A stretch of 63,874 nucleotides of DNA, counting the filler, from Stramenopiles sp. TOSAG23-2 (taxonomy: Eukaryota), in assembly GCA_900128395.1 (NCBI GenBank). It is 7 parts of 7 records of this genome, joined end to end, with 100 filler letters (N's around TTAATTAATTAA, not from the genome) between each part and the next. Parts side by side here need not be neighbours in the genome. Positions count along the whole stretch, not along the records: positions 27,490 to 36,529 come from LT650131.1; 6 more parts are not named here. One strand, written 5' to 3'. Positions within the stretch are counted from its first letter, which is position 1. Each line of letters begins with the position of its first letter. A model generated the notes under the pieces. The model ran no database searches. It was given only the letters and a program-made list of their open reading frames with translations, and had not been told where the DNA came from. Below are positions 5,801 to 36,529 of this stretch, in pieces. The position numbers and the translations under genes were made by a program.

Positions 5801-6556
5801 TTAGATCAAGGCAGTATTTCATTTTACAACATAGAAGAAGCAAATGCTATTGTTAAAATAATACAAGATTTACTTAAATCAGAAAAAGTGCAATGCACGG
5901 CAAGTGACATAGCAGTTCTATGTGCCTACTGGCAACAAGTCCGGCTCGTGCGTAAATATCTTAGACAGAGGGGATTAGGCGCAATACGTGTTGGTGTAGT
6001 TGATGATTATCAAGGCCAAGAATCCCCAATTACAATTGTATCATGTGTACTAACGCAACCACGGCAACAAGTTGATGTTTTAAGTCCTTTGACGGGTTTA
6101 CTTGGTAATGTAAAACGAGTTAATGTTGCTTTGACACGTGCAATGGGATTAAGCATAGTAGTTGCATCAGCATCTTTTTTAAAAAGCGACATGTACTTTC
6201 AACGTTTATTAAAATATTGTTGGAAAAATAACTCTGTATATACGGATAGAAATTTGAATGAATTCATTGTTGCAGAAGATGATATTGATGATGAAACGAA
6301 TAATATTCATATGACTACTGCTACTGCTACTAATGATAAAAATAATAATAAGAAGAAAGAAACTTTGAAAGATTATGATGATTATGAAGATGATGAAGAT
6401 TTAATATTAAACCATTTAAAAGATTTTGCTGTGTTAAATTTAAATGATGTCAATAATGCATTTGGGACCTCTGATTTGAATGGTAGTTCCTACGTGGCAT
6501 TGGAATTTGATGCATTCTATAAAGAGGAAAAACCATTCAAAGGTAATTCATTGTGA
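2873..6556 (+). CDS. MOV10: MOV10/SDE3/Armitage-like SF1 (UPF1-like) RNA helicase
   Basis: IHGPPGTGKT (Walker A), ILLTAPSDIACD, IFIDEAGQALEPE (Walker B), LSGDPKQL, NYRSH, VDDYQGQE, KRVNVALTRA. The upstream LPGVDEQRPFL segment is typical of MOV10/SDE3. First in-frame ATG is 2873 (the track's 2864 is TTG). Confidence 0.85.
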   Translation: MPKKTMKQRKQCAKKKMNFQPPPMLMMNGQPMLNYQFNPQHALMAQQQQMLQNQVFEHQRYVHNTQNFIQKQFQEIQQLKEIIARKGKIGSNVVNWSQELPPSLPKSLRHRIFNIFMRDTNELENLMKPKNGLKISKNFINFGNRNSKKILRNNNNNNSNINQPEDDIIIASESLTIDIVGAATRGEGGGESNMLSKYYLTGITKTDNNKNKKKKQIFKHKISNGANMPYLLNTKKGLIETEKIKIQINLCVDSSFSGGLKYEFLLFEFCEITCTQQGVQYNHFVIATLMMVYFESFSLSDDTKDNNDEKNTKLNIRAQKYVPMEKRKIFSLPALSLNSYPLRTRYHDPFLNSIFQQLKRKLKKRLFEQTQSFNKMGKLPLDLIWPNHRLINNILNPERLVYSVRDEMLLAGPYANTWARNGNEVLTSHHYLCHWIALLNVEELRIIADLKELDIHNISFLKVKLIEEKNDTHDDKQKLDQNQIVRCTLNLPGVDEQRPFLSMGMEISCRTLLRLDNNQAYELIGYIVRRNSTFVTAEFLVSDVVKYIMTTKTNPNIDNSTLTMAYKEKLISDIQGTKFHLRYTYQTDYYEAMRLALFLMVDKDGRDPNKMKTLFPSGKESLLKSLPIDIKESIHESKIMKQWKDRNDICNQLDERQMWVDDTVNLHQKISISMILSKENGLAPIVIHGPPGTGKTKTVVEAVNQIINLNLENAYTNKSKKERDKSKTSTRILLTAPSDIACDVLCSRLTKTLHGKYNMLRMNLPQRQVNEIVLMDVLNHCHISKTTGSFEIPEVTELKKYKVIVCTCAAAALFLANHHGLIDLFSNHFQYIFIDEAGQALEPEALIPISIGRLNKGIASIVLSGDPKQLEAQVRSPIAGAFRFGKSLQERLMSMPLYNPKNIQQSKFCFIQLNLNYRSHIDILNFSSTEFYDGSLHPKANDAKANKFLNWEGVRISKASGKPFPLIIYDIAGEERLDQGSISFYNIEEANAIVKIIQDLLKSEKVQCTASDIAVLCAYWQQVRLVRKYLRQRGLGAIRVGVVDDYQGQESPITIVSCVLTQPRQQVDVLSPLTGLLGNVKRVNVALTRAMGLSIVVASASFLKSDMYFQRLLKYCWKNNSVYTDRNLNEFIVAEDDIDDETNNIHMTTATATNDKNNNKKKETLKDYDDYEDDEDLILNHLKDFAVLNLNDVNNAFGTSDLNGSSYVALEFDAFYKEEKPFKGNSL

Positions 6557-7419: not shown

Positions 7420-9068
7420 TGCAAGTAGTCAAGCAACTAATCGAAAAAAAACTAAAAAAACTATTCAATTATCTCAATATGATCAATATTATGAGGAAGT
7501 ACGTAATACTATGAAAGAGTGTGGTAATGATGTTATTGACTTTGTCAAAGTTCGTGGAACAAAAACCAAAATATATAATGGAATCTGGGAAAATGATAAT
7601 GATGATCCACTAACAGGTAAAAACAATAATATTCGATATTCGAGGAATAATATTATTGGCAATAACAATGATAATAATAATGATGATGGTGCTGATAATA
7701 ATAATAACAAAAACAACAACAACGACACGAAGAACAATAAATTGGAAAACTTTGATGATAATAATGAAATGAAGATTTTAAGACGATTGCGGAAAGTGGT
7801 GCATAAAGACACAGTAACTGCATTCCAGATGAGTCATGTACGACTAATATTTATTACAACAAGACGGAATCAATTAATTGAAAAAATGAGAAGAGTCGTA
7901 TTGGGTGATCAAGTCAATGATAATACGATTATGTTTGACTCGAATTTTACATGGGATATTATTGCTTCGTATGATCTTTTTCAACATAATTTCCGACATG
8001 CAAATGATTGGTCATATAAATTTGATTTGATATTTGCATTTACTGCCATTATTAATATGTATGATAGTTGGAAACATGATCCTGAATTTGGATGGAGAAA
8101 TGAAAATAATTTTTTAAAATCGTTAGGTAAGAAATGGCAAAAAGTATTAACAAAAAGTAAAGAAAATTTAGGCATTCATGAAAAAGATATTTATACACAT
8201 GATGGAATTTTAACATTTTTGGAAGAATTTCAAAAGTCATTAGACCAAATATATAGCGACACTACGATGATAACTGTACGCGAAAAGCATTTTCGTGAGA
8301 ATATGAAATTTCACTACCTTGCAAGTCAGAAAAAAAAAATTAAAAACAAAAGAAAACAACGTAAGAAAGACGATAATAATGAATCAAGTGGTGAGGAATT
8401 ATCATCGTACGAAGGTTATGATGAATATATGCCATTTACTGAAGATGATGCAAATATATTTAGATTTCATAAAGAAAATAATAATGGTCATCATATAAAG
8501 AACATGACAGGTTGCATACCTGAAACCATACCAGATTCGTTTATTGGTCAAACACCTCGTGTGAAAGATAAGTCAATTAATGAAAGTGAATTGTTAAAGG
8601 AAAAAATAAAGGAAGAACTTATGGAAGATTTTTTACACTTGATAACTACATTACCAGCGACGCATCCAAAAATCCTTCGTATCAATATGTTAATTCAACA
8701 ATTTAACTTGACGGAATATGTAAAAAAAGAATTGATTGAAAAAAAAGAAAAAGAATTAGAGGAAGAAAGAATGAAGGGTCGCCGAGCATTACCACCTAAA
8801 AAGAAAATATTAAATCGACGTATAACATTAGCTGATCAGGAGGGAGCGATGTTTCCTGGTAAAGTGATTAGTGTGAGAAAAGGTACATCAAAGGAGGGCG
8901 TGAAACATGTAACTTTAGTACGTGTTTTATATGATGATGGAGAAACGGATACAGATTTAGATTTGGCGATTGAAGAATTTGAATGGTTAGAAGATACCCC
9001 AAATGCTAGCGCGGCAGAGGATAAAGTTGATGGAGATGATGAAGACAGCGAGGAGGAATCGGAATCGG
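6926..9068 (+). CDS. 3'-partial protein with two N-terminal C2H2-like zinc fingers and a C-terminal Tudor-like domain
   Basis: CERC...RAKGGHKGQC and CDRC...HALGGRKRYC; basic NLS-like tracts; FPGKVISV...VRVLYDDGETD Tudor-like motif. Runs into the linker. Alternative ATG at 6968. Confidence 0.7.
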
Positions 9069-9168: not shown

Positions 9169-12100
9169 CACACGTTAATAAATCTTTTGCTGGAATTCTA
9201 CCGGTGTAATCAGGCTGAGATGGTGTTGATGGGATAGAAGAATTTGATGTCGCATTATCGATTGGGATATATATATATTCAGTAATGTTAATATTACTGC
9301 TAGTGCTAGTGCTTTTCGTAGGATCACCCAATAAAGCAGGTTGTAATAAATTAGCACAGATAGATATATAACAAAATTCATATATCCACGATGCAATATT
9401 TCTGTATCCAGACGATTCTTGCACACGTTTCCGCTTCTCGTGATCTTTAATCGCTAGTGGCACAGTTACCAAGTAAATCCATGCTACAATAAGAAATAGC
9501 GCAATGATAGTGCCAGTTGGAGGATAAATCATGCGTTCATCATATGCAAACAATCCTTTGGTGCCACAGATAGATATATAACAAAATTCATATATCCACG
9601 ATGCAATATTTCTGTATCCAGACGATTCTTGCACACGTTTCCGCTTCTCGTGATCTTTAATCGCTAGTGGCACAGTTACCAAGTAAATCCATGCTACAAT
9701 AAGAAATAGCGCAATGATAGTGCCAGTTGGAGGATAAATCATGCGTTCATCATATGCAAACAATCCTTTGGTGCGACATAGATCATTGTCCAAGACATTG
9801 CGTGTGTTTGATAAGAACAAAACTGTAGTTATAATCCCTTTGGGGAAGTAACCATAAGTTGTCATGCCAACTGTTGTTTTCGTAATCAATAATGCAAAAG
9901 CTAATAACATCTGAAAGGGGGCGAAAAAAATATGAATTAGACTAATAAGATTTGGCAATGTTAGTCTGACAATTGGACTTCTCCAAGTACGCTCCGAAAA
10001 TTCTTGCCGCTGCTTATTTGTAAAATGAAAACCTACATTAAATGCAATGATGCCAAATATAATAACTAAGATCGCTATGAATGAATTTATACGAGTATTT
10101 GCGTCTGGAAAAAAAACATTGTCCCCTTGCAACGTGATAATAGGTATTATCAAGCACGTAAGCCATAATCCACCACTTAATAAAAAACGTGGAGTCGTTC
10201 CCAACACTTTTCGAAATAATAAATGTAATAGCGTAGCAAATGAAGCTGCTGGTACAAATATGGCATAAAAAATTACGCGTATTATCACTACATACGTTTC
10301 CCAGATAAAAAGTAACGAAAATAGCTGCCAAATCTCTCTAAGTGAGTGAGATAAATGTATTTCAGCGACTTCTACTGCTTCGGTTAATGATTGAAATGAC
10401 GGTATATCGCCAATCAAACGCGGTAACCTTATCAACGTTATTGCAACCAGGGTGAACAATATTATAAACTGCATTATATTCCACATATCGTAGCACATCT
10501 TCACAAGTTCCATCCGCAATACGAGTCGCAAACGTTTTGAATTCAAGCCACCTCTTTTCGTTTCTTTCAACACACGTGAAATAAAATTTGGAAATCGATA
10601 TATTGTAAATATTATTATCATAAGTAAAACAATAGTCAGGACATCCATGATTGCATATTTCAATGCTGTAAGACAATATTTTCGCAAATCCTGTTCTTTT
10701 CTACGCCAAATACCAGGCTTATAGGCACTACCACCATTTAAAGGTGGGTGGTTTGCATCGTGCAGCAGTTCATTGAATCGTTTCGTCAATTCCTTTAAAG
10801 TCTGTTCTAAGTTGGTATCTGCCTTTATTCGCTCCGCATTATTTAATTCTAACATCATAGGTCCTTCATACTCTTGATCGTAGATGCACTCTTGGACTGA
10901 TAAATTGACATTTGCGTGTATTACTGGCAATTGAGATTTTCGAATAGCTTCTCGTTCAAATTGTTTACATAGCGATTTAAATTTAATATCATCAACATAC
11001 GAATTGTTTTCATTCAAATTTTTTATTAGTGCAGACAATTTATGGTGAAACTCATTGATTGATTTTTGAGATTTTCGTCTTAAAGCTGTATCTATCGTCT
11101 TCACCCAGTGTAGTTTCGTGTTACTACTCTTTCCACTTTCGTTAATGAAGGCATACATATATTCCATATGATTATGTAAAGTAATGTCAATATCATATAT
11201 TTCTTGCAAGAAATATTTAGTTTCTTCAACAACATTATGTTTTGAAGATAAATTCATTAACCAGATTGCGTGGAAAAAACGCCATGGCATGAGTACAGAA
11301 AGTAACAAGCATGTAAGATGTAGAAGATCAACTATAATGTTAAATATGCATAAGAGGACAATATGCCACATGGAATCACGAAAACCAGGACCTTTGTTCC
11401 AAAATGGTAACAATTTTTCTTGTGTCATATCCTCTTCTACAATGTTTGTATTGTAAATCGCATCACTTCCAACTGTAAAAGCATTATCAACTACATCGTA
11501 CAAATCAATTAGAGGCAACTTAGCATTGCAGATATTAATCGTCTTTTTCTTTTTGTCCATGGTTGTACCTTCAACTTGTAGCATGATATCAAAAATATCG
11601 TGTATATCTTGAGCCGATGTTGTCTCGTTTGGTTTTGTTGTACTGCTTTTTAACATCAAACTTGCTAAATGTTTTTTAACGTTTTTCACATGTGCTTTAT
11701 GTGTTGTTTTAACAACAATTAATATTTCATGTCCTTCCGGTCCTTTCGGCGGTTCATGTTTTGGATCCATTATATCACAAGTAACTTTTAAAGGCTGGAC
11801 ACTTTTAGCAATTTGGACAACAAGGCCACCAAATATTTCTTCGATGTTTTCCCAAAATTTACCTTTGCCTAATATGCGCATTTGAGTGACTTGGAATTGA
11901 TTGCAAAAATCGACAGTATTACGGATATTAGTGTTAGTTACTCCGTGCAAATGAAACTCGATTACTCCTTTGATCTTCGGAATATGCATTTCAAGTCTAT
12001 TCATTTTTACTTTTCCAATTTCAGTAACTGGTTGGCTAGCACTTGACATGAAACTTAAAATACATGATGGTAATCTATAAAGCGTAAATGCAATTACCAG

Positions 12101-12397: not shown

Positions 12398-15300
12398 ATC
12401 TTCATTTTGGACTCTGATATCTGCAACATGTGGTGGTGCTGGTGGTGGTGCTATTGCTGCAACCGTCACAAATTTCCATCTATGATGAAATACGAATACA
12501 AATCCAACAAATGGTAACACTAGAAGATCAAGAAGAATCAACAATGTAGTTATAATGACGATACGAACACGATTATTTGAATTTACGTAATAAAAGTCAC
12601 TTGGACCAACAAATGATAAATAAATTTCTTGCTCCTGTTCCCTATGCTGCTCCTGTTGCTCATACTCGTAACCTTGTCTTTGCAAGTCAGTCAAGTCATT
12701 TTGAGCAATATGTTCATCTACAACTTTCGCTGCTGGCGTTACAGCTATTGTATTATTATTATCTCCACGATTATCGTTATCGTTTGTATTGACTGCTATG
12801 GCAGTAATTTGCACATCTTCCATTTTTTTTGCTGTCGAAAAACGTCGTAAATACTGAATCAAATTGCGGAAATTCTTTCTTAAATCTTCACCTCTATACG
12901 TACTTACACAAATAATGAGTATAAATGGCAAACTTAATAAATCAATGAGGAAATGAAAAAAATGCAAAAATACCTGAAAAACTCTAGTGCAACTTTTCCG
13001 ACATTCTAAATGATATAACTCATTTTTAGCAAAGTAAAGATGGTACACTGGTCCAGAGCGGTATATAGAAAGTAACAAAATTAATGTAAATGGCAATGTC
13101 ATTATGTCTATTATCAACAATACTACATTGAGGATTGTTATTATGTAGCGTTCCATAGAATCTTCAAAGCTAAAGCCATGGTTTTTGAATGAATTAATTA
13201 TTGGTTCACTACGCCATATGGTGACTACTAACAATAGCTGAAATGGTAACATGATTATATCTAAAATAATCAATACAAGTGAAACTATTAAAAAGATATG
13301 TCGTTCCATAGTTTCTTTGCATTTAAACTTGTTTTCTCCTTGTTTGTTTATTAGATCTTTTAGCAGCCCATTCCGATAGCATGTAAGACATACTATTATC
13401 AACAATGGCAAAAAAATAATATCTAATATAATCAAAATGAAGTTCGTCAAAACAAGTTTTTTAGTTTTCCAATTGAAATCATGCTTCATTTCCTTGGATA
13501 CATTTTGGAAACGATACCATGTAACTAAAATAAGTAAAATAGCTGGGACAAAAACAATATCAATGATGGTTAAAAAACCTTGCTTAATTATTTGCTCTCG
13601 TGTTTCATACATATAATATTTTTCAAATGCATATCCATCGTATTTATTATCTTCCACATTTACAGGATGTGAACGTAGAGCATCCTCTCCAAAATGATTC
13701 TCCTCTTGCCCTACTAATTGAGTTGGTATCCTGGTACGATTTTCTTTTGGAATAATTTTCCGTATATTTTGTATGCGTTTATAATGATTGTATAATATTC
13801 TAACACGAATAACAAAAGCACATGTAATTATTAAAAATGGTACAGCGAGTATATCTAATAACGAAAACAAACCAAAGTAAATTGCAGCCTTACGTGCTTG
13901 AACATTATAAGATCTATGTACATATATCTTATTTCCTTGGTATTTGCAATAATAATACGGTTGCAGAATACCGAAATCAACCCTTTTCCCCACAAAATCT
14001 TGAGCTTCGCGACGTGTTCCAGATCGAAATGCTTGCAGCCTTACGTGCTTGAACATTATAAGATCTATGTACATATATCTTATTTCCTTGGTATTTGCAA
14101 TAATAATACGGTTGCAGAATACCGAAATCAACCCTTTTCCCCACAAAATCTTGAGCTTCGCGACGTGTTCCAGATCGAAATGCTTCTACTAACTCTTTTG
14201 TTAATTGTTTTCCGTGCATACCACAGAACAAACCAATTAGTCCCAATGGTATTGCAAAAATATCGATTATTGAGCCGAAACAATTAAACAAGCAAATAAA
14301 TCTGAAATTGATGCGAGAATGTTTCATTTCTACACTTTCATTATCTTCATTATTATGTAATTCGTAATCATACGAACGTTCGTTTATCGGGTTTAAAATT
14401 TGACATTTGTCACTATTTATATGAATAATTTCTTTGATGGTATCAAATAAAATGAAAAGTATACGGTGTGGTGCTATGAGGCTAACAATGAAACAAGGAA
14501 GTGCTGAAAATGTATCCCCTATACTATTTCCAGCGAAAACAAAAGCCATACGACAAAAATGTAAACTTCGAAAAAATTGAAACTTTCCATAAGTTGTACA
14601 TTCATTCTTATATAGATTTTTTACTTCGTTTCACAATGAAACAAGGAAGTGCTGAAAATGTATCCCCTATACTATTTCCAGCGAAAACAAAAGCCATACG
14701 ACAAAAATGTAAACTTCGAAAAAATTGAAACTTTCCATAAGTTGTACATTCATTCTTATATAGATTTTTTACTTCGTTTCTATCTAATTTTTTTAAACTA
14801 TAATATTGATATGTAAATGTGAAAAAAATAGGATATACACTGCGAAAATATGCAATGGCAAACCATGGTGATAAAAATAAGCTTAACACAAATAAAAAAA
14901 TACCAAAGATATCAATTAAAGCCCTGCCAAAGTTGCGTGCAACTGTGAGACGCAATAATACATTGTACGAGTGTTTTATTTCAATGTCTTCATCTAGTTT
15001 GCGCTTGCATGTCATTGCTAAATACATTTCTTTTAAAAATGGTAATGTTCTAGTTGGGACACAAATGGAAAATGCCGCTGCAACCACTAGAAATATATCT
15101 AAAATAGCCAAACAAAATGATACAAAACCTGACCAAATAGCTCCACCACGATGTTTCCCAACTTTCTTATACAACGACATTTGTTGTAGTTCTTCTTGAC
15201 TATAAAAATAATTTTTATTCGATTTTAAAGGTACAAACAATGCATAGAAATAGACATATGGTGATATAAACGTTCGGGATGGACATATGCAACTAGCAAG

Positions 15301-15477
15301 CATAAATGCAAGCCCTATTATATCCAAAATGATATAAAAAATTTCTCTAATTAAATACCAAGTATATTCCACTACGACACTAATAATATATTGCAAGGTA
15401 TGAATGAACTCTGTAAACGCATCATGTGGTGGTTGTTGGTTGTTATTATTAGTGGTAGTCGTAGTTGTCGCGCTCAT
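9169..15477 (-). CDS. Large polytopic membrane repeat protein (>1900 aa, 3'-partial), split into three track ORFs by exact tandem duplications
   Basis: ORFs 14608-15477, 13977-14549 and 9113-14146 join in frame once the 148-bp and 151-bp duplications are removed. About 16 hydrophobic D-x4-P-x10-R-type repeats. Confidence 0.75.
9355..9774. repeat. Exact 210-bp tandem duplication (in frame)
   Basis: 9355-9564 repeated at 9565-9774. Confidence 0.95.
13882..14185. repeat. Exact 151-bp tandem duplication (frameshifting)
   Basis: TTGCAGCCTTACG... starts at 13882 and 14033. Confidence 0.95.
14485..14780. repeat. Exact 148-bp tandem duplication (frameshifting)
   Basis: ACAATGAAACAAGG... starts at 14485 and 14633. 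Confidence 0.95.
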
Positions 15478-15582
15478 ATTGTGTATATAGTAGAAATTAA
15501 ATAATGTAAGATAATGTAGTAGTCGTAGTTGTCGCGCTCATATTGTGTATATAGTAGAAATTAAATAATGTAAGATAATGTA
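15455..15582. repeat. 64-bp tandem duplication spanning the start codon
   Basis: GTAGTCGTAGTTGTCGCGCTCAT... at 15455 and 15519. Confidence 0.9.
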
Positions 15583-27489: not shown

Positions 27490-27863
27490 GTTTCGAGGCA
27501 GTAATTATCCTACCATGGGCTTAGCATTAAATTAACACGTATAACAAGATAAATCGACAGCTTTAATAACAGTTGCAATAATAATAAATTAATATATATA
27601 GTAAATTTAAATTATAAAAAAGGCCTTATATATCCAATGGAATGTTCCCAAATTTGTTTTAATGGTGAGTTTCTTCATGGCCATCACAACGTAAAAAACG
27701 CAAGCATTTCCGACATAGTAACAAAGACAAATATTTGAGAATACTGCACAACTGTTTTTCATTATTATTTGGGTTAGTAAAGAAGCGTTATAGGTAGCAA
27801 AACATGATAGAATAAAAATTGAAAAGTCAACTTATAGTAATATTTACTAGATGCTTTATTGTG

Positions 27864-28970
27864 ATGTCATTATATGCTTTTTTCTTTGTGATATTCAAAA
27901 TTGGCGTTGTTGCTATTCTTACACAAAGTGCATTCAACACAGAAGATGTGGCGTTCTTCTTTTTCCTCTCTGTTATTATATTCTTAACTTTGTATAGTTT
28001 GTACACGAGTCTTGAAGTACATAGTGGTGGCATAGAAGAAAACAGGGGGAAATATGGATTGAATTCTCTTTTTCTTGCAATTGCCGGAATTGGTCTTGTT
28101 GCTAGTCTCGTACAAAGTGCATTCAACACAGATGATTTGTCGTTCTTCTTTTTTGGCTTCTATGTCATATTAATACTCTTGATTTTGTATAGATGCCTAG
28201 AAGAAACCATTGGCGATACACAGAAAACGGGGGATCTGCTTGGAATTAACAGGCAGATAAGTAGGTCTAAGAAGAAAAGAAAGATAAAATTAAAAAAAGC
28301 AAAACAGAAAAAACCTGTTAAAAAATTAAACAAGAAAGTCTTACCATCTGCAAATAATGTAGAGGCGACTACAGTAAGCAACGCCGGCCCAGTAGAACAG
28401 GAATCATTTAAAAATTTGAAAAACAACGGGTTTTCGACAAGGAACTCGAAAGATTTATTTCAAAGTTCCCGAGAAAAAATTTCAGGGGACATTGGTCAAA
28501 ATGAAGCCGACGAGTTGAAATATCGACTTTCTCCAGGTATAGTGACCCAGAGAAAGAATTTACGTCCTGCCCCTCTGGTTGATAAAGTAGAAGATGAGGC
28601 AGAAAGAGAAGCAGAGGATGAGGCAAAAAGAGAAGCAGAGGATGAGGCAAAAAGAGAAGCAGGAGAGGAGGCAAAAAGAAAAGCAGAAGAGGAGGCAAAA
28701 AGAAAAGCAGAAGAGGAGGCAAAAAGAAAAGCAGAAGAGGAGGCAAAAAGAAAAGCAGAGGAGGAGGAGGCAAAAAGAAAAGCAGAAGAGGAGGCAAAAA
28801 GATTAGCGTCTCGACTTCGAGAGATCGGGCTTTGTCCGCAAAGTTTTAAGTGGCGGCATATTAGCAATGCTCATACCCAGTGTCAAAAGTGTGGTAAATC
28901 ATTTTCATCGGGGTATCGATGTGAAGGTGGAAGCCATTATGTTTGTGAAGATTGCGTAAACTACAATTGA
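27864..28970 (+). CDS. Membrane protein with an (EEEAKRKA)n stalk and a C-terminal Cys/His metal-binding domain
   Basis: Duplicated TM hairpin (QSAFNTEDVAFFFF / QSAFNTDDLSFFFF); 24-bp repeats; C-terminal LREIGLCPQSFKW..CQKC..GYRCEGGSHYVCEDC. First ATG is 27864. Confidence 0.75.
   Translation: MSLYAFFFVIFKIGVVAILTQSAFNTEDVAFFFFLSVIIFLTLYSLYTSLEVHSGGIEENRGKYGLNSLFLAIAGIGLVASLVQSAFNTDDLSFFFFGFYVILILLILYRCLEETIGDTQKTGDLLGINRQISRSKKKRKIKLKKAKQKKPVKKLNKKVLPSANNVEATTVSNAGPVEQESFKNLKNNGFSTRNSKDLFQSSREKISGDIGQNEADELKYRLSPGIVTQRKNLRPAPLVDKVEDEAEREAEDEAKREAEDEAKREAGEEAKRKAEEEAKRKAEEEAKRKAEEEAKRKAEEEEAKRKAEEEAKRLASRLREIGLCPQSFKWRHISNAHTQCQKCGKSFSSGYRCEGGSHYVCEDCVNYN
28590..28802 (+). repeat. Coding 24-bp minisatellite (EEEAKRKA, ~9 units)
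   Basis: GAGGAGGCAAAAAGAAAAGCAGAA units. Confidence 0.9.
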
Positions 28971-29170
28971 CCATTTGTATTTTTAAAAAAAGACAATTTT
29001 TTTATTGGTAGAAAAGTAGAAAAGTAGTATATATATATAATATATACGTGTACTATCACACGAGCGTACGCTTTAGGTAATTAGAAATACGATTCGTATA
29101 AAAACTTCATGATGAACGATCGTAACCACGGTTTATATTTTACCATAATAATATAATATATGATACGCGT

Positions 29171-29350
29171 AATATCTTGGCACACTCTGCGTGGATTACA
29201 ATGAACTCTATTGCGATGTTACGATTCATTGTCCGTTGTCCCATCTTTCAGTTTAGTGAGATAGATTATTGCCTCAGTTATTGTATGATATTCTTTTGGA
29301 GATTAGGAATTATCATGAGTATCATATATCACATAAATTAAAAATAAATT
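29171..29350 (+). repeat. Dispersed repeat family A copy (A1 flank)
   Basis: Reverse complement of 45763-45872, plus the family A core. Confidence 0.85.
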
Positions 29351-29440
29351 ATAATTTATGCACGTACAATTATACTACTTCGTACGAGGTAATAATCATA
29401 TTTTAAATTTAAAATTCTCTTTTTTTTTACCAAATAAAAC

Positions 29441-29549
29441 GATGGTTAAAATCTAAGTTATAATAATTTTACACTTCTCGTGATTCTCTTATTTATCATA
29501 TTATATAAAATGTTCTCTTACTCATATATTATATAAATTTCTTTTACTC
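29441..29549. repeat. Family B 3' part (reverse strand) followed by family C
   Basis: GATGGTTAAAATCTAAGTTATAATAATTTTACACTTCTCGTG is the reverse complement of ~43856-43897. AAAATGTTCTCTTACTCATATA.. matches 51001. Confidence 0.8.
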
Positions 29550-29956
29550 CCGTTCATTAACATCTCAAATCAAAAATGATTTTTATAAAGTCCATATAAT
29601 TATTTATAAAGTTTAGTAAAAATTATTTAGTATTCAAAAGATTGTTCCTCTGTCTGTGATTCAGAGTTAAATGAAAGAGCTACTCCTTCATAAAGTTGTG
29701 TATCATATTATATATATATATATAATATATATATTATATAATTTCAATAATATATTGTTAATAATTTTATAAATTGTGTGTGTAGAACTATGTGTGCATA
29801 TAAACTCTCTCAATTTTTTTTTTAAATCATATTTTAATATTGGCTCAAACACTGTATTCTCTTTAGAGTAGGAATTGTCATTCATGGGTAGAGAAATAAA
29901 AAATTAAAAAATACGATCGTACGCGTTACTTTTATTTATTTTTATATAATATAAAA

Positions 29957-30597
29957 CTTCAGATGGGAAGAATTTACCTCCAGACGTGCAGACTAACCAA
30001 CAAAACAACACCGGCATTCTATCAAATTGTTATGAGCAGCATGATATTAGGAATAATGACAATAACTCTTTTGATGAAAAGGCCAAACCAGACGTTCTTT
30101 ATTACGTAAACACAAATACCAAGAATGTGCAACAGAATGAGATTCACCATGTGAATACTGTATGCTGCAAAAAACTATTATCCAAAGAGGATATCATTCA
30201 AAATCATAGTCACCGGGCGATCACTTTAAAATTTAACCAGGCTAGGCTCTATGATGTATACAATGATAAATCAACTTTGGAAACAGTTCCTTTTGTAGTA
30301 GACTCTTCAGATGGGAAGAATTTACCTCCAGACGTGCAGACTAACCAATAAAACATCAAGGAGCAAAAACCCGAGATTCATCACTTGTCAACGTTACCAA
30401 CTCGTGATAATTTTGTGCATTGCAACCACAACCTATTGTCATCCAAGACAATGGTTGCTATGAATCCACCCCTGGGGAATTCAAAACCACCAAACTTTGG
30501 AAAACCTATGGACTATTCACATCACTTTCATCGAGTGTGTTATACTGGATTCAGACCTACTTGTGCTTATAGAGTATTAGCTTGCGGCGGCGCATGA
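29957..30597 (+). pseudogene. Decayed ORF with an internal duplication, running into repeat family B (possible mobile-element relic)
   Basis: 44-bp direct repeat CTTCAGATGGGAAGAATTTACCTCCAGACGTGCAGACTAACCAA at 29957 and 30305; in-frame stop at 30349; ORF ends ...RVLACGGA* inside family B. Confidence 0.4.
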
Positions 30598-30702
30598 GAG
30601 CTTTAATAATAATAGGATAGAATATTTATTCTCGAGATTGAGTATTGAGCATATTATTTAACATGAGAAGTAAAATTATTATAACTTTTAGATTTTAACC
30701 AT
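30555..30702 (+). repeat. Dispersed repeat family B, longest copy
   Basis: ACCTACTTGTGCTT.TAGAGTATTAG...TAGATTTTAACCAT is shared with 43710-43896. Confidence 0.85.
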
Positions 30703-30817
30703 TTTATAATATTAAAAGTAACCCGTATTTTTCAAATTAGAACACAGTATACGTACACAAATTCGTACTGACCACTGAAATTTATTTACGAAGAGAGTAT
30801 CATATAAGTACCACTTT

Positions 30818-33800
30818 TTACAAATCGTCTGGTTCCTCATCTGTTTCTTTAGATTCCGTAGTATTATAGTTTTCGGCACGGTCATCTGGTAACTTCAGAT
30901 TAGCTTTTAACTCTTCTTCTTCTGTGCTATACCATACATGGATCACATCATCTTCATTCTGAACCATCTCCTCATCCTCAAGTTCCTCTACGTATTCATT
31001 TATTGCAATTTTTAACTTGTTTCGAAATTGTTTAAATACTCTATAGCCACTCGATGGAGATTTAGCGTACTCAGATTTGCCATATTCGACTACTGACCTA
31101 TGAAAAGAAATATTTTTTTTGCATTCATCATTGTATTTTCTTAAAATTGTATCAATTATTGCAGCAACCTCCTTCTCTATAAATTTTCCATAGGGGCATA
31201 AGCAGCTTGGTTTAACAAATCTACTAGTAAATGCATCGTTATTCATCCGAGTAAATTCCATTGATAAGTTTTTCTTTAATGTCTTCTTCATTGACTCAAA
31301 CGCCTTTTTATTCTTCTTTCTTGAATCAGACAAAAAATCATCACCTTTGCATTCTTTTAATATATCATGTTGCCCAAAATTTCCACAGAAAACAAATATA
31401 GTGTATCTAATAGAAACTTGGATGGCTTGTCCTTGAGCAGCTACATTGGATAACATACCCTCTTCTAACATATCATAAAATTGGGATAGTATGTCCCGCA
31501 TTGGTTTAGATTGTCTATCGTTAGCGCCTCTGTCAGAAATCATGGCTTTTTCAAACTCATCAATTATAGCAACATTTACTTTGTCTTTCCAATGCTTATT
31601 CCCACTATTACACTTCGTCAAAAATTGTACAAATTTCGACCCCTGCGAATTACCGCCACACCATTTTGCACCAACACCCCAAATATCATCTTTGGTCGTA
31701 CTTGTTTTAAATTGTATGTTAAAGGTTCGTGTTGGATCACCACTAGACAAAGCATGACCTAGCTGTCTTGCCATGTTACTTTTTCCACTACCAGGCATCC
31801 CAGTCAATATAATAATAAGCGGGTTCTTATCAGCAGCTTGACCCTTCATTTCTTCATCATGCCAACTTTGAAACTTAGCAATAACTCTACGTGCAATTTT
31901 AGTTGCAGCTATAGAATGACCAACAGTGACATATTGTAGACTTGGTAATAGTTGTAAACCTAGAGTTTCATTTTTTTGTTTTCTTCTTAGATTAATTTTT
32001 GGTAACTGTAGCGCACGTTTAAGAAAATACATTGCCTCTAAATTTCCAGAGGCATGCACATATTCCTGTATATTTATTCCATGGAAAGTAATTCTAGGAT
32101 TAGCTCCCTGTGATAACAGATATTTGAATATTTCAGTTTCAACGTATGTCGGGAATTTTTCTATCACAACTTCCTTCAAATCTGTTGGTAACATTTCCAA
32201 AAGCGCGTCGGTTTTTCTTCCCATAAGCAGTGCATACAGAAGCGGGGGCACCTTATATGTAACATTACATAAATTTGGATTTGCACCATGTTTAAACAGC
32301 TCATCAATCAAAGTAACATGTCTGTATATACCTTCCCCGCCTCTTATAACAATTGGATTTTGTCGTATAGCATAGAACAAAGGTGTGTCCCCAAGCTGGT
32401 CTTTTTTGTCTTTTCTCTTACTTAAAAGTGCCAGATTTATCAACTTGTCGTTTTGACTGCATTGCTTATCTATTGCATCTACTTTTTGCAACACTTCTAT
32501 AAATTTACCCCAAACGCTGTGTCCATCATACAGACCTTCCTTTATTCTTGATCTTTTATTAGTATTTTCTATATGTTTACACATATTGTAGAGCGACTGG
32601 AAAACACTTTTATTTTCTCTTCCATTTTTCTTGTAAAATTTTGCAATCTCGTTATTGGAATCATTATTATTAATACCTCCAGATTCTTCCCTATCAGATT
32701 CTTCTCTCGCCTCAGAATCCCCAATTCCCTCTGCATATGTACCATCACTATTAATATAATGATCGTCACTCCCATCTTTGAGTTCATCATCACTTTCACG
32801 ACCCGATTTTTCTTCGTTATTATTATTCTTTGTTTTAAATGACTTTTGCTTCTTGGGTTTCACCTCTCCTGTTGTGATTTTCTTGTTTTCTTTCTTAAAC
32901 ATTAAACTCTTGCATCTCTTGCATAGCGAATAATTAAGTATCGTCGAATAATTAAGTGTTAAAAATATTAACAATATTGTTGCAAAGCCTTGGAATGCAC
33001 GTTGTGCGTATTCTTCAGAATGATCAATATGGTAATTCTTGAAATAGTACATGTGCGGTTTGTGCTTTTCGATATATGTTACAACTTTAAAACAATAGTA
33101 TAACAAAAAGCTTACCAAGAAACTTAGAATTATCGCTTTCAATATATTTATTACTCCTAATTTAAAACATTCGCGTATCAAATAGCACGTAAATGACTGT
33201 GGGAATTTTCGTTTCTTTTTTGGAACGGAATCCGTTCCCGTATCGTTTTTCTGCCCCTCTCTGGTATCATCCAAATTAGCTCTATCAGTTAATCGATAAT
33301 CTGCATCGTTTCTCCGATTCCTACTTCTGGAACGCACACCAGTGACAGCTTCCTCTACGATCTCTGGGGGTTTAAAAGGGAATAGGAAATCCCAGATGGT
33401 GTGAAGTGTTGCTTTGGCAAAAGTAGTACCCGACAACGCATCCTTGCTTACACATTTCAAACACTTATAAACAGCCAATAATAAAAGAACAAGAACAGGA
33501 AGAATTATTAACGGTAACAACAAGAAACGCGACGGGTCATTCCATATACCAACTGGCCAAACAAGGACTAACGAAGGCACCATTCCAACAGCCACATTTC
33601 GGCACATTGTCCAATTTACTTCGTGAAATGATAATTCTATCGCAAATAGAGCTGCCCACAACAAAAACGCATATGCACCATTTTCAAAGTAATTCATGTA
33701 CCAAATTATAACATATATAGTGCTAGAAAAGCATGAAAGACCCATCAAAGTCGCATGCACTACAAAGCGAGCTTTTATTTTTTTCACTATCGGAGTGTCT

Positions 33801-34291
33801 TCTAGCTCTTCTACTTCTCCCGCTGCTTCTGATGGGTTTTCTTTCTCTTTCATCAAATGTTCTTTAGCATCCTTCACTTTATTTGCATCGTAGTCGACAG
33901 CTTCATTTCTATATTTGCCGGAGTCGGAGTGATAGAAACGGCTTACTTTTTGAAACCTATCCTTTACATCGTCTTTACTCAATTTAGAGAAATCATCTGG
34001 TACTTTGGTGTTTTCATTATTTGCAAGTTCGCAATTTATCATATCTGGAGCCCACAGCGTTTGAAGTGCTTCATCTATAACATTCGCTGTCGTCACCCTT
34101 CTCGTAAATATATTTGAGCAAAATGCACCCAGGATCCTTGCAATAATCCATAAAATTAAGAATATAAATGCGCAGATTAAATATATCTCATGCAAGCAGT
34201 TCCATAGGTATATTAATATAAGTATGACAGCTAATATTTGTTCAAGCCGGGCAAGTTTTACATCCACTTGATTAATCACCTCTTTACACAT
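30818..34291 (-). CDS. Multi-TM / J-domain-like / ankyrin / ClpB(Skd3)-type AAA+ ATPase fusion protein
   Basis: J-like DVKDRFQKVSRFYHSDSG. Ankyrin motifs GDTPLFYA, LFKHGANPN, LLSQGANP. Walker A GMPGSGKS, Walker B AIIDEFEK, DMLEEG, sensor-1-like IFVFCGN. First ATG is 34291 (the track's 34390 is TTG). Confidence 0.8.
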   Translation of the reverse strand: MCKEVINQVDVKLARLEQILAVILILIYLWNCLHEIYLICAFIFLILWIIARILGAFCSNIFTRRVTTANVIDEALQTLWAPDMINCELANNENTKVPDDFSKLSKDDVKDRFQKVSRFYHSDSGKYRNEAVDYDANKVKDAKEHLMKEKENPSEAAGEVEELEDTPIVKKIKARFVVHATLMGLSCFSSTIYVIIWYMNYFENGAYAFLLWAALFAIELSFHEVNWTMCRNVAVGMVPSLVLVWPVGIWNDPSRFLLLPLIILPVLVLLLLAVYKCLKCVSKDALSGTTFAKATLHTIWDFLFPFKPPEIVEEAVTGVRSRSRNRRNDADYRLTDRANLDDTREGQKNDTGTDSVPKKKRKFPQSFTCYLIRECFKLGVINILKAIILSFLVSFLLYYCFKVVTYIEKHKPHMYYFKNYHIDHSEEYAQRAFQGFATILLIFLTLNYSTILNYSLCKRCKSLMFKKENKKITTGEVKPKKQKSFKTKNNNNEEKSGRESDDELKDGSDDHYINSDGTYAEGIGDSEAREESDREESGGINNNDSNNEIAKFYKKNGRENKSVFQSLYNMCKHIENTNKRSRIKEGLYDGHSVWGKFIEVLQKVDAIDKQCSQNDKLINLALLSKRKDKKDQLGDTPLFYAIRQNPIVIRGGEGIYRHVTLIDELFKHGANPNLCNVTYKVPPLLYALLMGRKTDALLEMLPTDLKEVVIEKFPTYVETEIFKYLLSQGANPRITFHGINIQEYVHASGNLEAMYFLKRALQLPKINLRRKQKNETLGLQLLPSLQYVTVGHSIAATKIARRVIAKFQSWHDEEMKGQAADKNPLIIILTGMPGSGKSNMARQLGHALSSGDPTRTFNIQFKTSTTKDDIWGVGAKWCGGNSQGSKFVQFLTKCNSGNKHWKDKVNVAIIDEFEKAMISDRGANDRQSKPMRDILSQFYDMLEEGMLSNVAAQGQAIQVSIRYTIFVFCGNFGQHDILKECKGDDFLSDSRKKNKKAFESMKKTLKKNLSMEFTRMNNDAFTSRFVKPSCLCPYGKFIEKEVAAIIDTILRKYNDECKKNISFHRSVVEYGKSEYAKSPSSGYRVFKQFRNKLKIAINEYVEELEDEEMVQNEDDVIHVWYSTEEEELKANLKLPDDRAENYNTTESKETDEEPDDL

Positions 34292-34973
34292 TATTTCAAT
34301 TGCAAGTGATAAGTGATAAGTACAATATCTTTTTAGAAATATAGTCCAGAAAAACGACCGGTATAATCTATAAAGTATAAATGTATACAATTATTTAGTA
34401 ATTTCGTATTTTGATTTAGGCTGTTGCTTAGCCTTTAGACAGATGTTAGTGATTAGCACATATATTTATAGTATTATAATAATACAATGTATTTAATTTA
34501 GTTTTAGATATTAATATGATGCACATATTAATATAATAAAAAAAAATTGCCGTACGGCGAGAGCCCTGCATTAGGTCTGGATTGGGGGTTGTGGCACAGC
34601 GATGGAATTCGTTGGAGTTAAGGAGGGTTTTGGCAGTTTGATATCAATTGCTTAATATCATAGGGGATATTGGTTTTCTGATTGTAGTCGAGGCGTAGTG
34701 TAATATCGTATGCGTTGTTGTACAGTATTAAGTATAGTACTACTGTACTATCCATTCATATATAGTGTGTGATAGTGTTGTGCTGTATCGATGTATACGA
34801 TATTGTGTATTGGCTGTCGCAAACGTTATTTTAATCGTAAATTAAAATATAAATGTAGGCCAGTAGGGCAAGTGGGAAAAATAAAAAAAAAAATAATACA
34901 TCAGCGCAATGCATCGGTTCTATATATACAAGTGTGTACAATCTCATTTTATATATTTCTCTTAGTGAAACAG

Positions 34974-35225
34974 TCATTTTGTATTTAATTTTTTGTTGCA
35001 TGTATTTATATTCTCAAGTGTTTTATTTAAGCAAGGCAGTGGTTTGCCCTGATCAACTTGCACAGAATATGCTAAATTATAATAGTTTAAAGCATTGTTG
35101 TAGTCTTCCTCGACTTTGTATGCTTCAGCAATTTTGATGTAAGAGGTTGAAAGTGTTGGGTTCTTGCTGCCCAGTAGCGTTTTCTTTAAGTCTGTTAACG
35201 CAATGCGAGTCTTGATGGCCCGCAT
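34974..35225 (-). pseudogene. Degenerate TPR gene fragment
   Basis: LLGSKNPTLSTSYIKIAEAYKVEEDYNNALNYYNLAY resembles kinesin-light-chain-type TPR (LG..HP..A.SY.NIG..Y...GDY..AL.YY). Confidence 0.5.
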
Positions 35226-35354
35226 CTTTTCACCAGTCTTTTCATATAAGATTACTAAAATCTATGGGTATAGTACTATTGCTAAAATCATATGGCAGCA
35301 TGATACAGCATGCCTTATTAGGGCATGGCAACTATCTCTAGTGTTGCCCTGCCC

Positions 35355-35735
35355 GGCCTGCTATGTTCATATGCGGCAGGACGAAAAGGCCCCTGCTATG
35401 TTGATATAACAGGAAACGGATTTAGGCCCTGCTGTATTCATATGAAACAGGCGACGGATGTAGCCCCTGCTGTGTTCATAACGAAAGAGACGAAAAGGAC
35501 CTGCTGTGTTCATATTAAAAAAACGAAAAGGCCCCTGCTGTGTTCATATAACAGGAACGGATTTAGCCCCTGCTGTGTTGGTATGCAAAAGTGAAAAAAG
35601 CCCCTGCTGTGTTCATATTAAAAAAACGAAAAGGCCCCTGCTGTGTTCATATAACAGGAACGGATTTAGCCCCTGCTGTGTCGGTATGCAAAAGTGAAAA
35701 AAGCCCCTGCTGTGTTCATATTAAAAAAAAGGAAA
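35355..35735 (+). repeat. 11-unit array: ~19-bp conserved GCCCCTGCTGTGTTCATAT plus 14-19-bp A-rich spacers; 103-bp higher-order repeat
   Basis: Units start at ~35355, 35388, 35425, 35463, 35497, 35530, 35566, 35600, 35633, 35669 and 35703. Confidence 0.92.
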
Positions 35736-36264
35736 AGCATAAAATACTTAGTACTGTGCTTATGCTAATATTAAGGTGAAATGTAATAAAAATAACAGAC
35801 TCCCAATTAGAGTACCCCAATACCACCCCCTTAGTACTACTTACAACTTAACTATACTACTCTTTCGTACTACAACTAAAAATAATAATTTAAATTCCTT
35901 ATTTACTTTTTTTAACGACTTTTATGCTCTTTTTCTCTTCCTCTCTGGACAGCCCCAATGCACTCTAATGCAGGGGATATATAATAATACATTCAGGTAA
36001 TGTGCTAATATTAATATTATTATTAATACCAGGTATTTATATTATATAATTCCCTGCCCTGAAGTGTGTGGGTGTCAATAATGTATCTTGGTTTCTATAT
36101 GTTGTTTTTAATATTATAAGGATCTATTTATGTGTAATCTTGTAGTATAATATCTTATAGTGTTTATAGTGTAAAAGTATCTATTAATGTAGTTAAATTT
36201 CACTTAGCAGCTGAGTGTTGAGTGTGTACACTTCAAAGGGTGTGGCAAGATTATAGCGAAGTGC

Positions 36265-36453
36265 GAAAGGCATTTCATCCTTAAACCATTGCCATCTCAT
36301 AGGATAATTCCAACATCCTATACTAAGACATATAACTACTACTCTCTCAGTATCACCATGAAATCCTATTCCTGTCTTTTTAAGGTCATAATATCTATTT
36401 CCTTCAACTACATTAATTAATACTTTAGTTTTACTATCTATAGCTATCAAACC
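36265..36453 (-). pseudogene. Fragment of a giant-virus-like 2OG-Fe(II)/AlkB-fold gene
   Basis: INVVEGNRYYDLKKTGIGFHGDTERVVVICLSIG..YPMRWQWFKD, with an HxD motif. I recall this motif from NCLDV proteins but have not verified it. No ATG start and no full-length ORF. Confidence 0.6.
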
Positions 36454-36474
36454 AACGTCAAATGTAACGCGGAG

Positions 36475-36529
36475 AGGCCGTACACACCAGGGGTTATTCT
36501 TCCGTTTTTAGGCCGTACACACCAGGGGT
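36475..36529 (-). repeat. Start of a second, inverted 35-bp-period array, cut by the contig end
   Basis: AGGCCGTACACACCAGGGGT at 36475 and 36510. Its reverse complement CCCCTGGTGTGT resembles the array unit CCCCTGCTGTGT. Confidence 0.75.

Follow-up and report, generated by a model that had tools for sequence, protein, structure and literature searches.

Two Probable Helitron-Like Group 2 Transposons, Head to Head, in an Uncultured Marine Protist, One Carrying a Giant-Virus Gene Fragment

What kind of genetic element combines tandem arrays of a short motif with fragments of unrelated genes, one of them resembling a giant-virus gene? This question is raised by a locus in the genome of the uncultured marine protist Stramenopiles sp. 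TOSAG23-2 (assembly GCA_900128395.1). The window, meaning the whole 63,874-nucleotide stretch of DNA that was analyzed, is an end-to-end series of seven ~9-kb contigs with artificial N/TTAATTAATTAA linkers between them; the locus lies at the end of the contig that occupies positions 27490–36529. An earlier note on this DNA had assigned the locus to a Pack-CACTA-like family that captures host and viral fragments. Our analysis corrects the class, because the ends resemble those of rolling-circle Helitron-like elements of group 2 (HLE2) and not those of CACTA transposons. The locus probably comprises two related, non-autonomous transposons of this group (Helentron/Helitron2; "HINE"-like), here called A and B, which are positioned head to head, 72 bp apart, in an intergenic region. 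We rate both elements as a new family of a known kind, from an uncultured protist, with each element carrying a passenger gene fragment.

Element B is represented in the window by its 5′ 480 bp (36050–36529, plus strand) and is cut by the contig end. Related loci were collected by scanning a metagenome collection with a two-unit array pattern, which returned 31 loci, eight of them AT-rich and truly related. Besides the window, copies of B are found in L006, L007, L011, L013, L018, and L019; a further locus, L022, has only the array in common. In an alignment of the seven copies, homology ends exactly at TTCCCTGCCCTGAAGTG (window position 36050) in every one. The 5′ terminus (36050–36066, plus strand) is TT followed by the inverted repeat CCCTGCCCTGAAGTG, and all seven copies conform to TT plus CCCTGCCCTGAA(G/A)T(G/A)T. 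The CCCTG that had been pointed out at 36052 is the start of this repeat and belongs to the second element, beginning at 36050. The complement of the repeat is present in each of the three complete copies (L013, L018, and L019, of 807, 966, and 827 bp, respectively), where it sits 25 nt inside the opposite end. That end reads ...TTCAGGGCAGGGG-TCCTT-GCCTGGCAGGC-GAATGTTGT, including an 11-nt palindrome (GCCTG-G-CAGGC) followed by nine conserved bases. Because the 25 nt outside the repeat (spacer, palindrome, and GAATGTTGT) are conserved in all three complete copies, the repeat is subterminal at this end. The copies sit among unrelated eukaryotic genes, encoding phytochelatin synthase, a thioredoxin-domain protein, phosphatidylserine synthase, IFT20, and an acyltransferase. 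The window copy is 95% identical to that in L007.

Element A is complete, non-autonomous, and approximately 1.44 kb long (about 34538–35977, minus strand), with its 5′ end at 35977 and its 3′ end at ~34538. A second copy, in metagenome locus L005 (273–1320), is 88–90% identical over window positions 34541–35953, with unrelated sequence on both flanks; it lacks window positions 35045–35267 (223 bp) as well as the last 22–24 nt at the 35977 end. The imperfect inverted termini previously seen at 34564 and 35975 are present, as the 11-mer CCCTGCATTAG at 34564–34574 and its complement at 35965–35975, and ATTGGGG is seen again after a 5/6-nt gap in both arms. The 5′ terminus (35965–35977, minus strand) is T followed by the inverted repeat CCCCTGCATTAG, which pairs with 34564–34574. 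The 3′ copy of the repeat (34564–34587, minus strand) is subterminal, with the exact 11-nt core at 34564–34574 and an imperfect extension to ATTGGGG. Outside it lies a terminal segment (34538–34563, minus strand) composed of the spacer CTCTC, the perfect palindrome GCCGTACGGC (34549–34558), AA, and a T-run. This layout, ...CTAATGCAGGG-CTCTC-GCCGTACGGC-AA-T-run on the element strand, is kept in L005 past the inverted repeat, with a T-run whose length varies between the two copies. The GAG and GAT flanks that had been proposed as a target duplication are inside the conserved element, as the segment shared with L005 continues ~23 nt beyond the left CCCTG. Between the 5′ ends of A and B is an AT-rich spacer of 72 bp (35978–36049).

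Sequencing runs, searched as Logan contigs, bear on these boundaries and on copy number; they comprise two small DNA runs of the organism (X1 and X2), a seawater metagenome (X3), and a metatranscriptome (X8). Unique unitigs stop at 34567 in X1 and at 34564 in X2. Such stops are placed ~30 nt (k−1) inside a repeat, which puts the repeat start near 34535–34538, in agreement with the L005 boundary. One X1 unitig (35950–36076) bridges A, the spacer, and B. Summed contig depth, which is a rough guide only, is 556 in X1 and 1153 in X2 for a single-copy open reading frame (ORF), as compared to 5803–6078 and 8558–8658 for the 5′ part of B and 15565 and 22425 for the bin containing its array. The depth of B is therefore ~7–10 times that of its single-copy neighbor in the organism's own runs, while the body of A gives 471–886 in X1 and 588–980 in X2. 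Contigs of X1 and X2 carry a base other than that of the window at 34712, 35840, and 35843, and unitigs break repeatedly within A, which suggests a second, slightly different copy of A or an allele in the organism. B occurs in seven different flanking contexts and A in two. The proposal of dispersed mobile elements that lack a transposase and carry internal or subterminal arrays is upheld, and B is multi-copy by both contig depth and contexts.

Array A (35355–35721, plus strand) contains 11 units of period 34/35 bp with the core CCCCTGCTGTGTTCATAT, counted at three mismatches or fewer. The reported count of 11 is borne out; 0.06 matches are expected from shuffles, and 11 was reached in 0 of 100. 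On the element strand, its units read ...ACAGCAGGGG, in the same orientation as the 3′ subterminal repeat. The array of a related motif at the contig end is likewise real: array B (36475–36529, minus strand) shows two units of the contig-end motif AGGCCGTACACACCAGGGGT, 35 bp apart, before the sequence stops, with AACCCCTGGTGTGTACGGCCTAAAAACGGAAGAAT as the minus-strand unit. Unit counts vary, with 11 for array A in the window and ~7 in L005, and ~4–9 for array B in the related copies. On the element strand both arrays run the same way (...ACAC[A/C][G/C]CAGGGG...) and reiterate the CAGGGG core of the 3′ subterminal repeat, so the arrays are putatively reiterated pseudo-ends or transposase binding sites.

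The remaining 23 of the 31 array loci are GC-richer (38–69%), with other periods and flanks, and were set aside as probably unrelated or chance sharers of a 12-mer. Arrays with an (A/G/T)NCCCCTG(C/G)TGTGT core are seen among the GC-richer loci at a 32-bp period (L008, L020, L021, L028, L002, L012, L015, and L026), at 31 bp (L016 and L023), and at 40 bp (L031, L014, and L027), and also in L001. The 32-bp family matches array A at 17 of 19 positions around the core. This common core may be due to chance, as the search pattern selected for it, or it may be a widespread motif. In viral contigs, neither the array pair pattern nor the 3′ end of B had any match. The 5′ 18-mer of B had one, in L046 (46% GC), a contig that appears phage-like from its sequence; blastn found no similarity between this contig and the elements, and the 18-mer match was taken as chance.

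The architecture of A and B resembles that published for HLE2 elements. Both have short inverted repeats, the 5′ one within a few nucleotides of the terminus (seven of seven copies of B, and A), and both have a subterminal 3′ repeat followed by a palindrome before the end (B, 3/3; A, 2/2). They occur dispersed in multiple copies, and the number of their central tandem repeats varies. No target-site duplication (TSD) of 2–9 bp fits all three complete copies of B at any offset of ±3, and T is found at both junctions, with A/T-rich flanks. Thomas, Vadnagara, and Pritham (2014; PMC4067079) describe subterminal inverted repeats (subTIRs) of 12–15 bp located 2–4 nt from the 5′ terminus and 38–60 bp from the 3′ terminus, together with a palindrome of 5–10 bp located 8–35 bp from the 3′ terminus. 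They also describe T-rich boundaries, a TT target with no TSD, and tandem repeats in some copies. In common with these HINE/DINE-1-like Helentrons, A and B begin at a T-rich boundary with a 12–17-nt inverted repeat within 1–2 nt of it, carry the repeat again in a subterminal position near the 3′ end, and have a short palindrome (5-bp stem) ~9 nt from the 3′ terminus. They also resemble them in that no TSD was seen in the three complete copies of B, and in their A/T-rich flanks, variable central tandem repeats, and absence of coding capacity. They differ from them in their host, an uncultured marine protist, and in their units of 34–35 bp, each with the repeat core CAGGGG; moreover, no 5′ internal inverted repeat or microsatellite of the DINE-1 type was recognized in A or B.

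Two further sources allow this comparison to be extended. Canonical HLE2 elements, according to PMC11417382, have terminal inverted repeats of 12–16 nt and a stem-loop past the right repeat, and insert between T and T. PMC7492417 reports Cg_HINE families of the Pacific oyster with common flanks and satellite-like central arrays in fixed orientation. A and B are similar to these in being related families with a common flank architecture and different central arrays, whose orientation is fixed relative to the flanks and whose copy number varies. The oyster monomers were selected at 100–500 bp, in contrast to 35 bp here, and foreign gene fragments are not mentioned for the oyster elements in the text consulted. 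A and B could be of either the Helentron or the Helitron2 type.

Canonical Helitrons, such as those of maize and bats, capture gene fragments. A and B share with them internal pieces of unrelated genes in non-autonomous copies and cargo that differs among siblings. Unlike canonical Helitrons, they have ends of the HLE2 type rather than TC...hairpin-CTRR, and one of their pieces comes from a giant virus.

Several observations weigh against the assignment to HLE2. ORFs were listed stop-to-stop, 36 of at least 110 aa from the eight related loci and 27 of at least 150 aa from the window; 50 of these plus an ORF of 1190 aa were scanned, and no Helitron Rep (Helitron_like_N) or PIF1 helicase was found among the 51. 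The short 3′ palindromes fold no better than shuffled sequences (z of +0.78 to −1.26). No empty site was seen, and insertion between T and T would be compatible with the junctions. The 5′ end of A is known from one copy only, as L005 is truncated 22–24 nt before it, and the part of A past the stop codon of its TPR fragment could be the 3′ flank of the parent gene. The depth of A is near single copy. Finally, the 11-mer pair of A is weak by itself: when the contig was simulated 300 times with a Markov model, 12.7% of the simulations contained a G+C-rich pair (six or more G/C) within 2 kb. What makes the pair meaningful is its placement at the repeat boundaries. A gathering-threshold Rfam scan of L019 and L005 also returned nothing. 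With no Rep or helicase, no empty site, palindromes too short to stand out in folding, and no Rfam match, membership of HLE2 is proposed on structural grounds.

The alternative that survives best, though we consider it unlikely, is another or undescribed mobile class with asymmetric hairpin ends, such as HUH (Y1), tyrosine recombinase, or Fanzor/TnpB-linked elements. Asymmetric ends, a palindrome near one end, and the lack of a TSD are not unique to Helitron-like elements, and no partner protein is known. Against this, the combination of TT plus a subTIR, a subTIR plus a palindrome, and central tandem repeats is specifically the HINE/HLE2 plan given in the papers cited above, and nothing here points to another enzyme.

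A lower probability, about what one would give an outside chance, attaches to a cut-and-paste family with terminal inverted repeats, either Pack-CACTA/CMC-like or from another DDE superfamily, in which the arrays would be subterminal transposase-binding sites. CACTA/En-Spm (CMC) transposons and their Pack-type derivatives do resemble A and B in their arrays of a terminus-related motif, gene-fragment cargo, and non-autonomous copies, and the locus has inverted repeats together with arrays of a related motif. The two differ in their termini, the symmetry of their ends, and the TSD. The termini of A and B are T or TT plus CCCTG rather than CACTA, and the repeat lies 25 nt (B) or ~23–26 nt (A) inside the conserved boundary at one end, with 23–25 conserved nucleotides outside it in 3/3 copies of B and 2/2 of A. 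The 2–3-bp TSD of CMC elements was sought, and no length fits the three complete copies. The arrays are single, central, and in one orientation, not at both ends, and no DDE transposase was found in the scanned ORFs of the window or the related loci. The asymmetric ends, the failure of any TSD to fit, and the TT/CCCTG termini leave the Pack-CACTA assignment unsupported.

It is very improbable that the locus is not mobile at all and instead reflects dispersed minisatellite arrays with segmentally duplicated flanks and inverted motifs that arose by chance. The lack of significance of the 11-mer pair alone, the near single-copy depth of A, and the same 12-mer core in arrays of unrelated GC-richer contigs would all fit such an explanation. 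It does not accommodate seven copies of B with sharp, identical boundaries, inverted repeats exactly at those boundaries, and unrelated flanks, nor the ~10-fold depth of B in the organism's own runs.

What do A and B carry? Element A contains the captured 3′ end of a RING/U-box plus TPR gene, approximately codons 378–468 plus the stop (34974–35248, minus strand; tblastn). Window positions 35258–34977 (minus strand) are 91% identical to residues 375–468 of P0202, a 468-aa RING/U-box plus TPR protein, with convincing similarity from near residue 378 through the stop codon. A decayed TPR fragment had been reported here; the fragment is real, but it is hardly decayed, with 94 codons plus a stop at 91% identity to the C-terminus of P0202. 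L005 retains just the last 20–21 codons of this piece, indicating that the capture is older than the split of the two copies of A and that L005 lost the 223 bp later. We rejected the idea that the TPR piece is a gene disrupted in place, as both sides of the junction are common to L005 and only the internal 223 bp are absent. A search for close relatives of the fragment and of full-length P0202 in viral contigs found none. Contigs from RNA libraries cover 34667–35248 and 36142–36419; they are no evidence that the elements are transcribed, as possible sources are the parent TPR gene, the virus, and DNA in the libraries. One metatranscriptome contig matches 35146–35248 with one mismatch and then diverges from the window, and we infer that it represents the intact parent gene.

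The cargo of element B in the window is of different origin. The giant-virus-like gene fragment of ~190 bp seen previously is real: it is an internal piece of 186 bp with 62 open codons (36268–36453, minus strand). This cassette is 91.9% identical over 186 nt to L037, a contig of a giant-virus metagenome-assembled genome (MAG), and 78–87% identical to 13 other contigs (IMG/VR). The similarity to viral contigs ends at the cassette borders. The 104-aa ORF that includes the cassette has 391 protein matches, the best being P0001, with 79% identity over a 72-residue alignment (ORF residues 9–80); the close similarity begins only at residue 19, which is the cassette start. The P0001 family is present in 14 giant-virus contigs of IMG/VR, up to 336 kb in length, and in L034 the homologue is within 6 kb of a nucleocytoplasmic large DNA virus (NCLDV) major capsid gene and VLTF3. 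The family gives a weak 2OG-Fe(II) oxygenase score and keeps the H-x-D motif. A tree of the cassette and its 14 viral homologues is poorly resolved and shows only that L037 is nearest. As for gene content, L037 carries thymidylate synthase and PCNA. Besides these two, ORFs of the giant-virus contigs with the donor-like gene (L037:9455–10681 and others beside the homologue) encode an M16 peptidase pair, a cupin, a RING protein, and an RNB exoribonuclease.

When did the viral piece enter element B? Viral similarity is found in none of the six other copies, all of which carry ~30 bp (GTCCCTATTGCTTAGAGTATGGTTTGGTA) at that place. Because L007, the sibling with 95% identity to the copy in the window, is among them, the viral piece is a derived and recent replacement. 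The cassette and L037 differ at 14 codons, 11 synonymously and three non-synonymously. The mostly synonymous differences suggest that the divergence accrued largely in functional viral genes and that the insert is young. Together, the codon pattern and the close sibling without the insert point to a recent viral insertion. At the junctions there are 4–6 nt of filler on one side (36264–36269) and an overlap of 0–1 nt on the other, which would suggest break repair or template switching rather than read-through capture at the end of an element. Two loose ends in X1, at 36263 and 36453, lead into the ~30-bp sequence of the siblings, indicating that both forms of B exist in this run. No X2 contig covers the viral cassette, while 35950–36075 is covered; for contig data, missing cover of this sort does not indicate absence. 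The proposed capture of both host and viral fragments holds to the extent that one piece of each is seen, but it is not shown to be a general habit, as viral DNA is present in one of seven copies of B.

These data allow a mechanism to be outlined for A and B as HLE2 elements. Each begins with T or TT and a 12–17-nt inverted repeat and continues through a central array of 35-bp period to the 3′ copy of the repeat, beyond which lie a spacer of 5 nt, a short palindrome, and a tail rich in T. A Rep/helicase encoded elsewhere would nick at the T-rich ends and peel off one strand, which would re-insert at T-rich sites without duplication of the target. The gene pieces are passengers. Element A gained its cellular RING plus TPR 3′ end before its two known copies diverged, and the window copy of B recently exchanged ~30 bp beside the array for 186 bp copied from giant-virus DNA, with break repair or template switching as the likely route in view of the filler.

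Could the viral cassette serve a function? A bolder proposal is that the 35-bp arrays are break-prone spots that are patched with whatever DNA is at hand, including that of giant viruses in the course of infection, and that transposition spreads such inserts genome-wide, possibly templating antiviral antisense or small RNAs. We regard it as a long shot; if true, it would represent a transposon-borne infection memory in a protist, resembling that of endogenous viral elements (EVEs). Still less credible is that this locus, besides being a transposon, acts as a reservoir of viral sequence from which antiviral small RNAs are made, akin to a piRNA cluster or EVE-like immunity. A recent, 92%-identical viral fragment lies beside an array in a multi-copy element, and contigs of the metatranscriptome X8 match element B and the cassette. 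Yet viral DNA occurs in only that one of the seven copies, the TPR cassette lacks a close relative in the viral contigs searched, and each cassette has the opposite orientation to the other with respect to its element. Viral mRNA may be the source of the RNA contig over the cassette, and RNA libraries can contain DNA. An assembly chimera or a co-assembled virus, which would mean that the protist genome does not itself contain the viral piece, has an almost negligible probability. The piece is 76 bp from the end of a contig in a single-cell-type assembly, but its 186 bp of viral homology are flanked by B sequence on both sides, and the neighboring 1190-aa ORF is of eukaryotic type. An X1 unitig (36234–36469) also joins the cassette to B without mismatch; it extends into B by 30 nt at one border but by only 16 nt at the other, under the 31 nt required for a unitig to count as bridging.

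With A and B read as HLE2 transposons, the locus contributes a family, present in an uncultured marine protist, whose central array consists of reiterations of the terminal motif. The 92%-identical viral piece embedded in one of these transposons gives physical evidence of contact between the protist genome and DNA of this virus lineage or a close relative, and host links of that kind are rare for marine giant viruses. The locus is unlike large EVEs or giant EVEs (GEVEs), having no contiguous multi-gene viral region; viral similarity is confined to 186 bp, and matches between the 14 viral loci and the rest of the 9-kb contig are limited to low-score ones of 31–55 nt. In a literature search, none of the titles or opening abstract lines of the best 12 of 165 papers describes a Helitron-like element with a viral fragment in it, which is no proof of absence.

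The surroundings are those of a eukaryotic genome. An ORF domain scan finds genes of ordinary eukaryotic type around the elements and their related copies, including kinases, tubulin, IFT20, phosphatidylserine synthase, and phytochelatin synthase. The 1190-aa ORF (30818–34390, minus strand) is intron-less and combines a long, multi-pass membrane-like N-terminus with ankyrin repeats and an AAA_2 ATPase domain resembling that of ClpB/Skd3. In the protein atlas, the clusters closest to it are eukaryotic Ank-AAA (Skd3/CLPB-like) proteins. The end of element A is ~150 bp upstream of this ORF.

Another repeat, of ~1.26 kb, lies on the same contig at 29442–30702, between the arms of an imperfect inverted repeat of 41 nt, of which 18 nt are exact. 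It includes a direct repeat of 54 nt as well as ORFs that match no Pfam family. Summed contig depth peaks for the whole stretch in its right part (30436–30871), at 15544 in X1 versus 556 for single-copy sequence, and in L005 a related piece with 83% identity directly adjoins element A at its truncated end. Elsewhere in the window, one 9-kb contig contains four two-copy tandem duplications of 99–100% identity (9355–9778, 13882–14185, 14485–14780, and 15455–15582; 210, 151, 148, and 64 bp, respectively), which may be assembly artifacts of an amplified single-cell library or very recent duplications. Finally, on the contig of A and B, positions 28584–28802 form an in-frame coding repeat of nine 24-bp units (EEAKRKAE-type) within a 384-aa ORF that ends in a Cys-rich motif.

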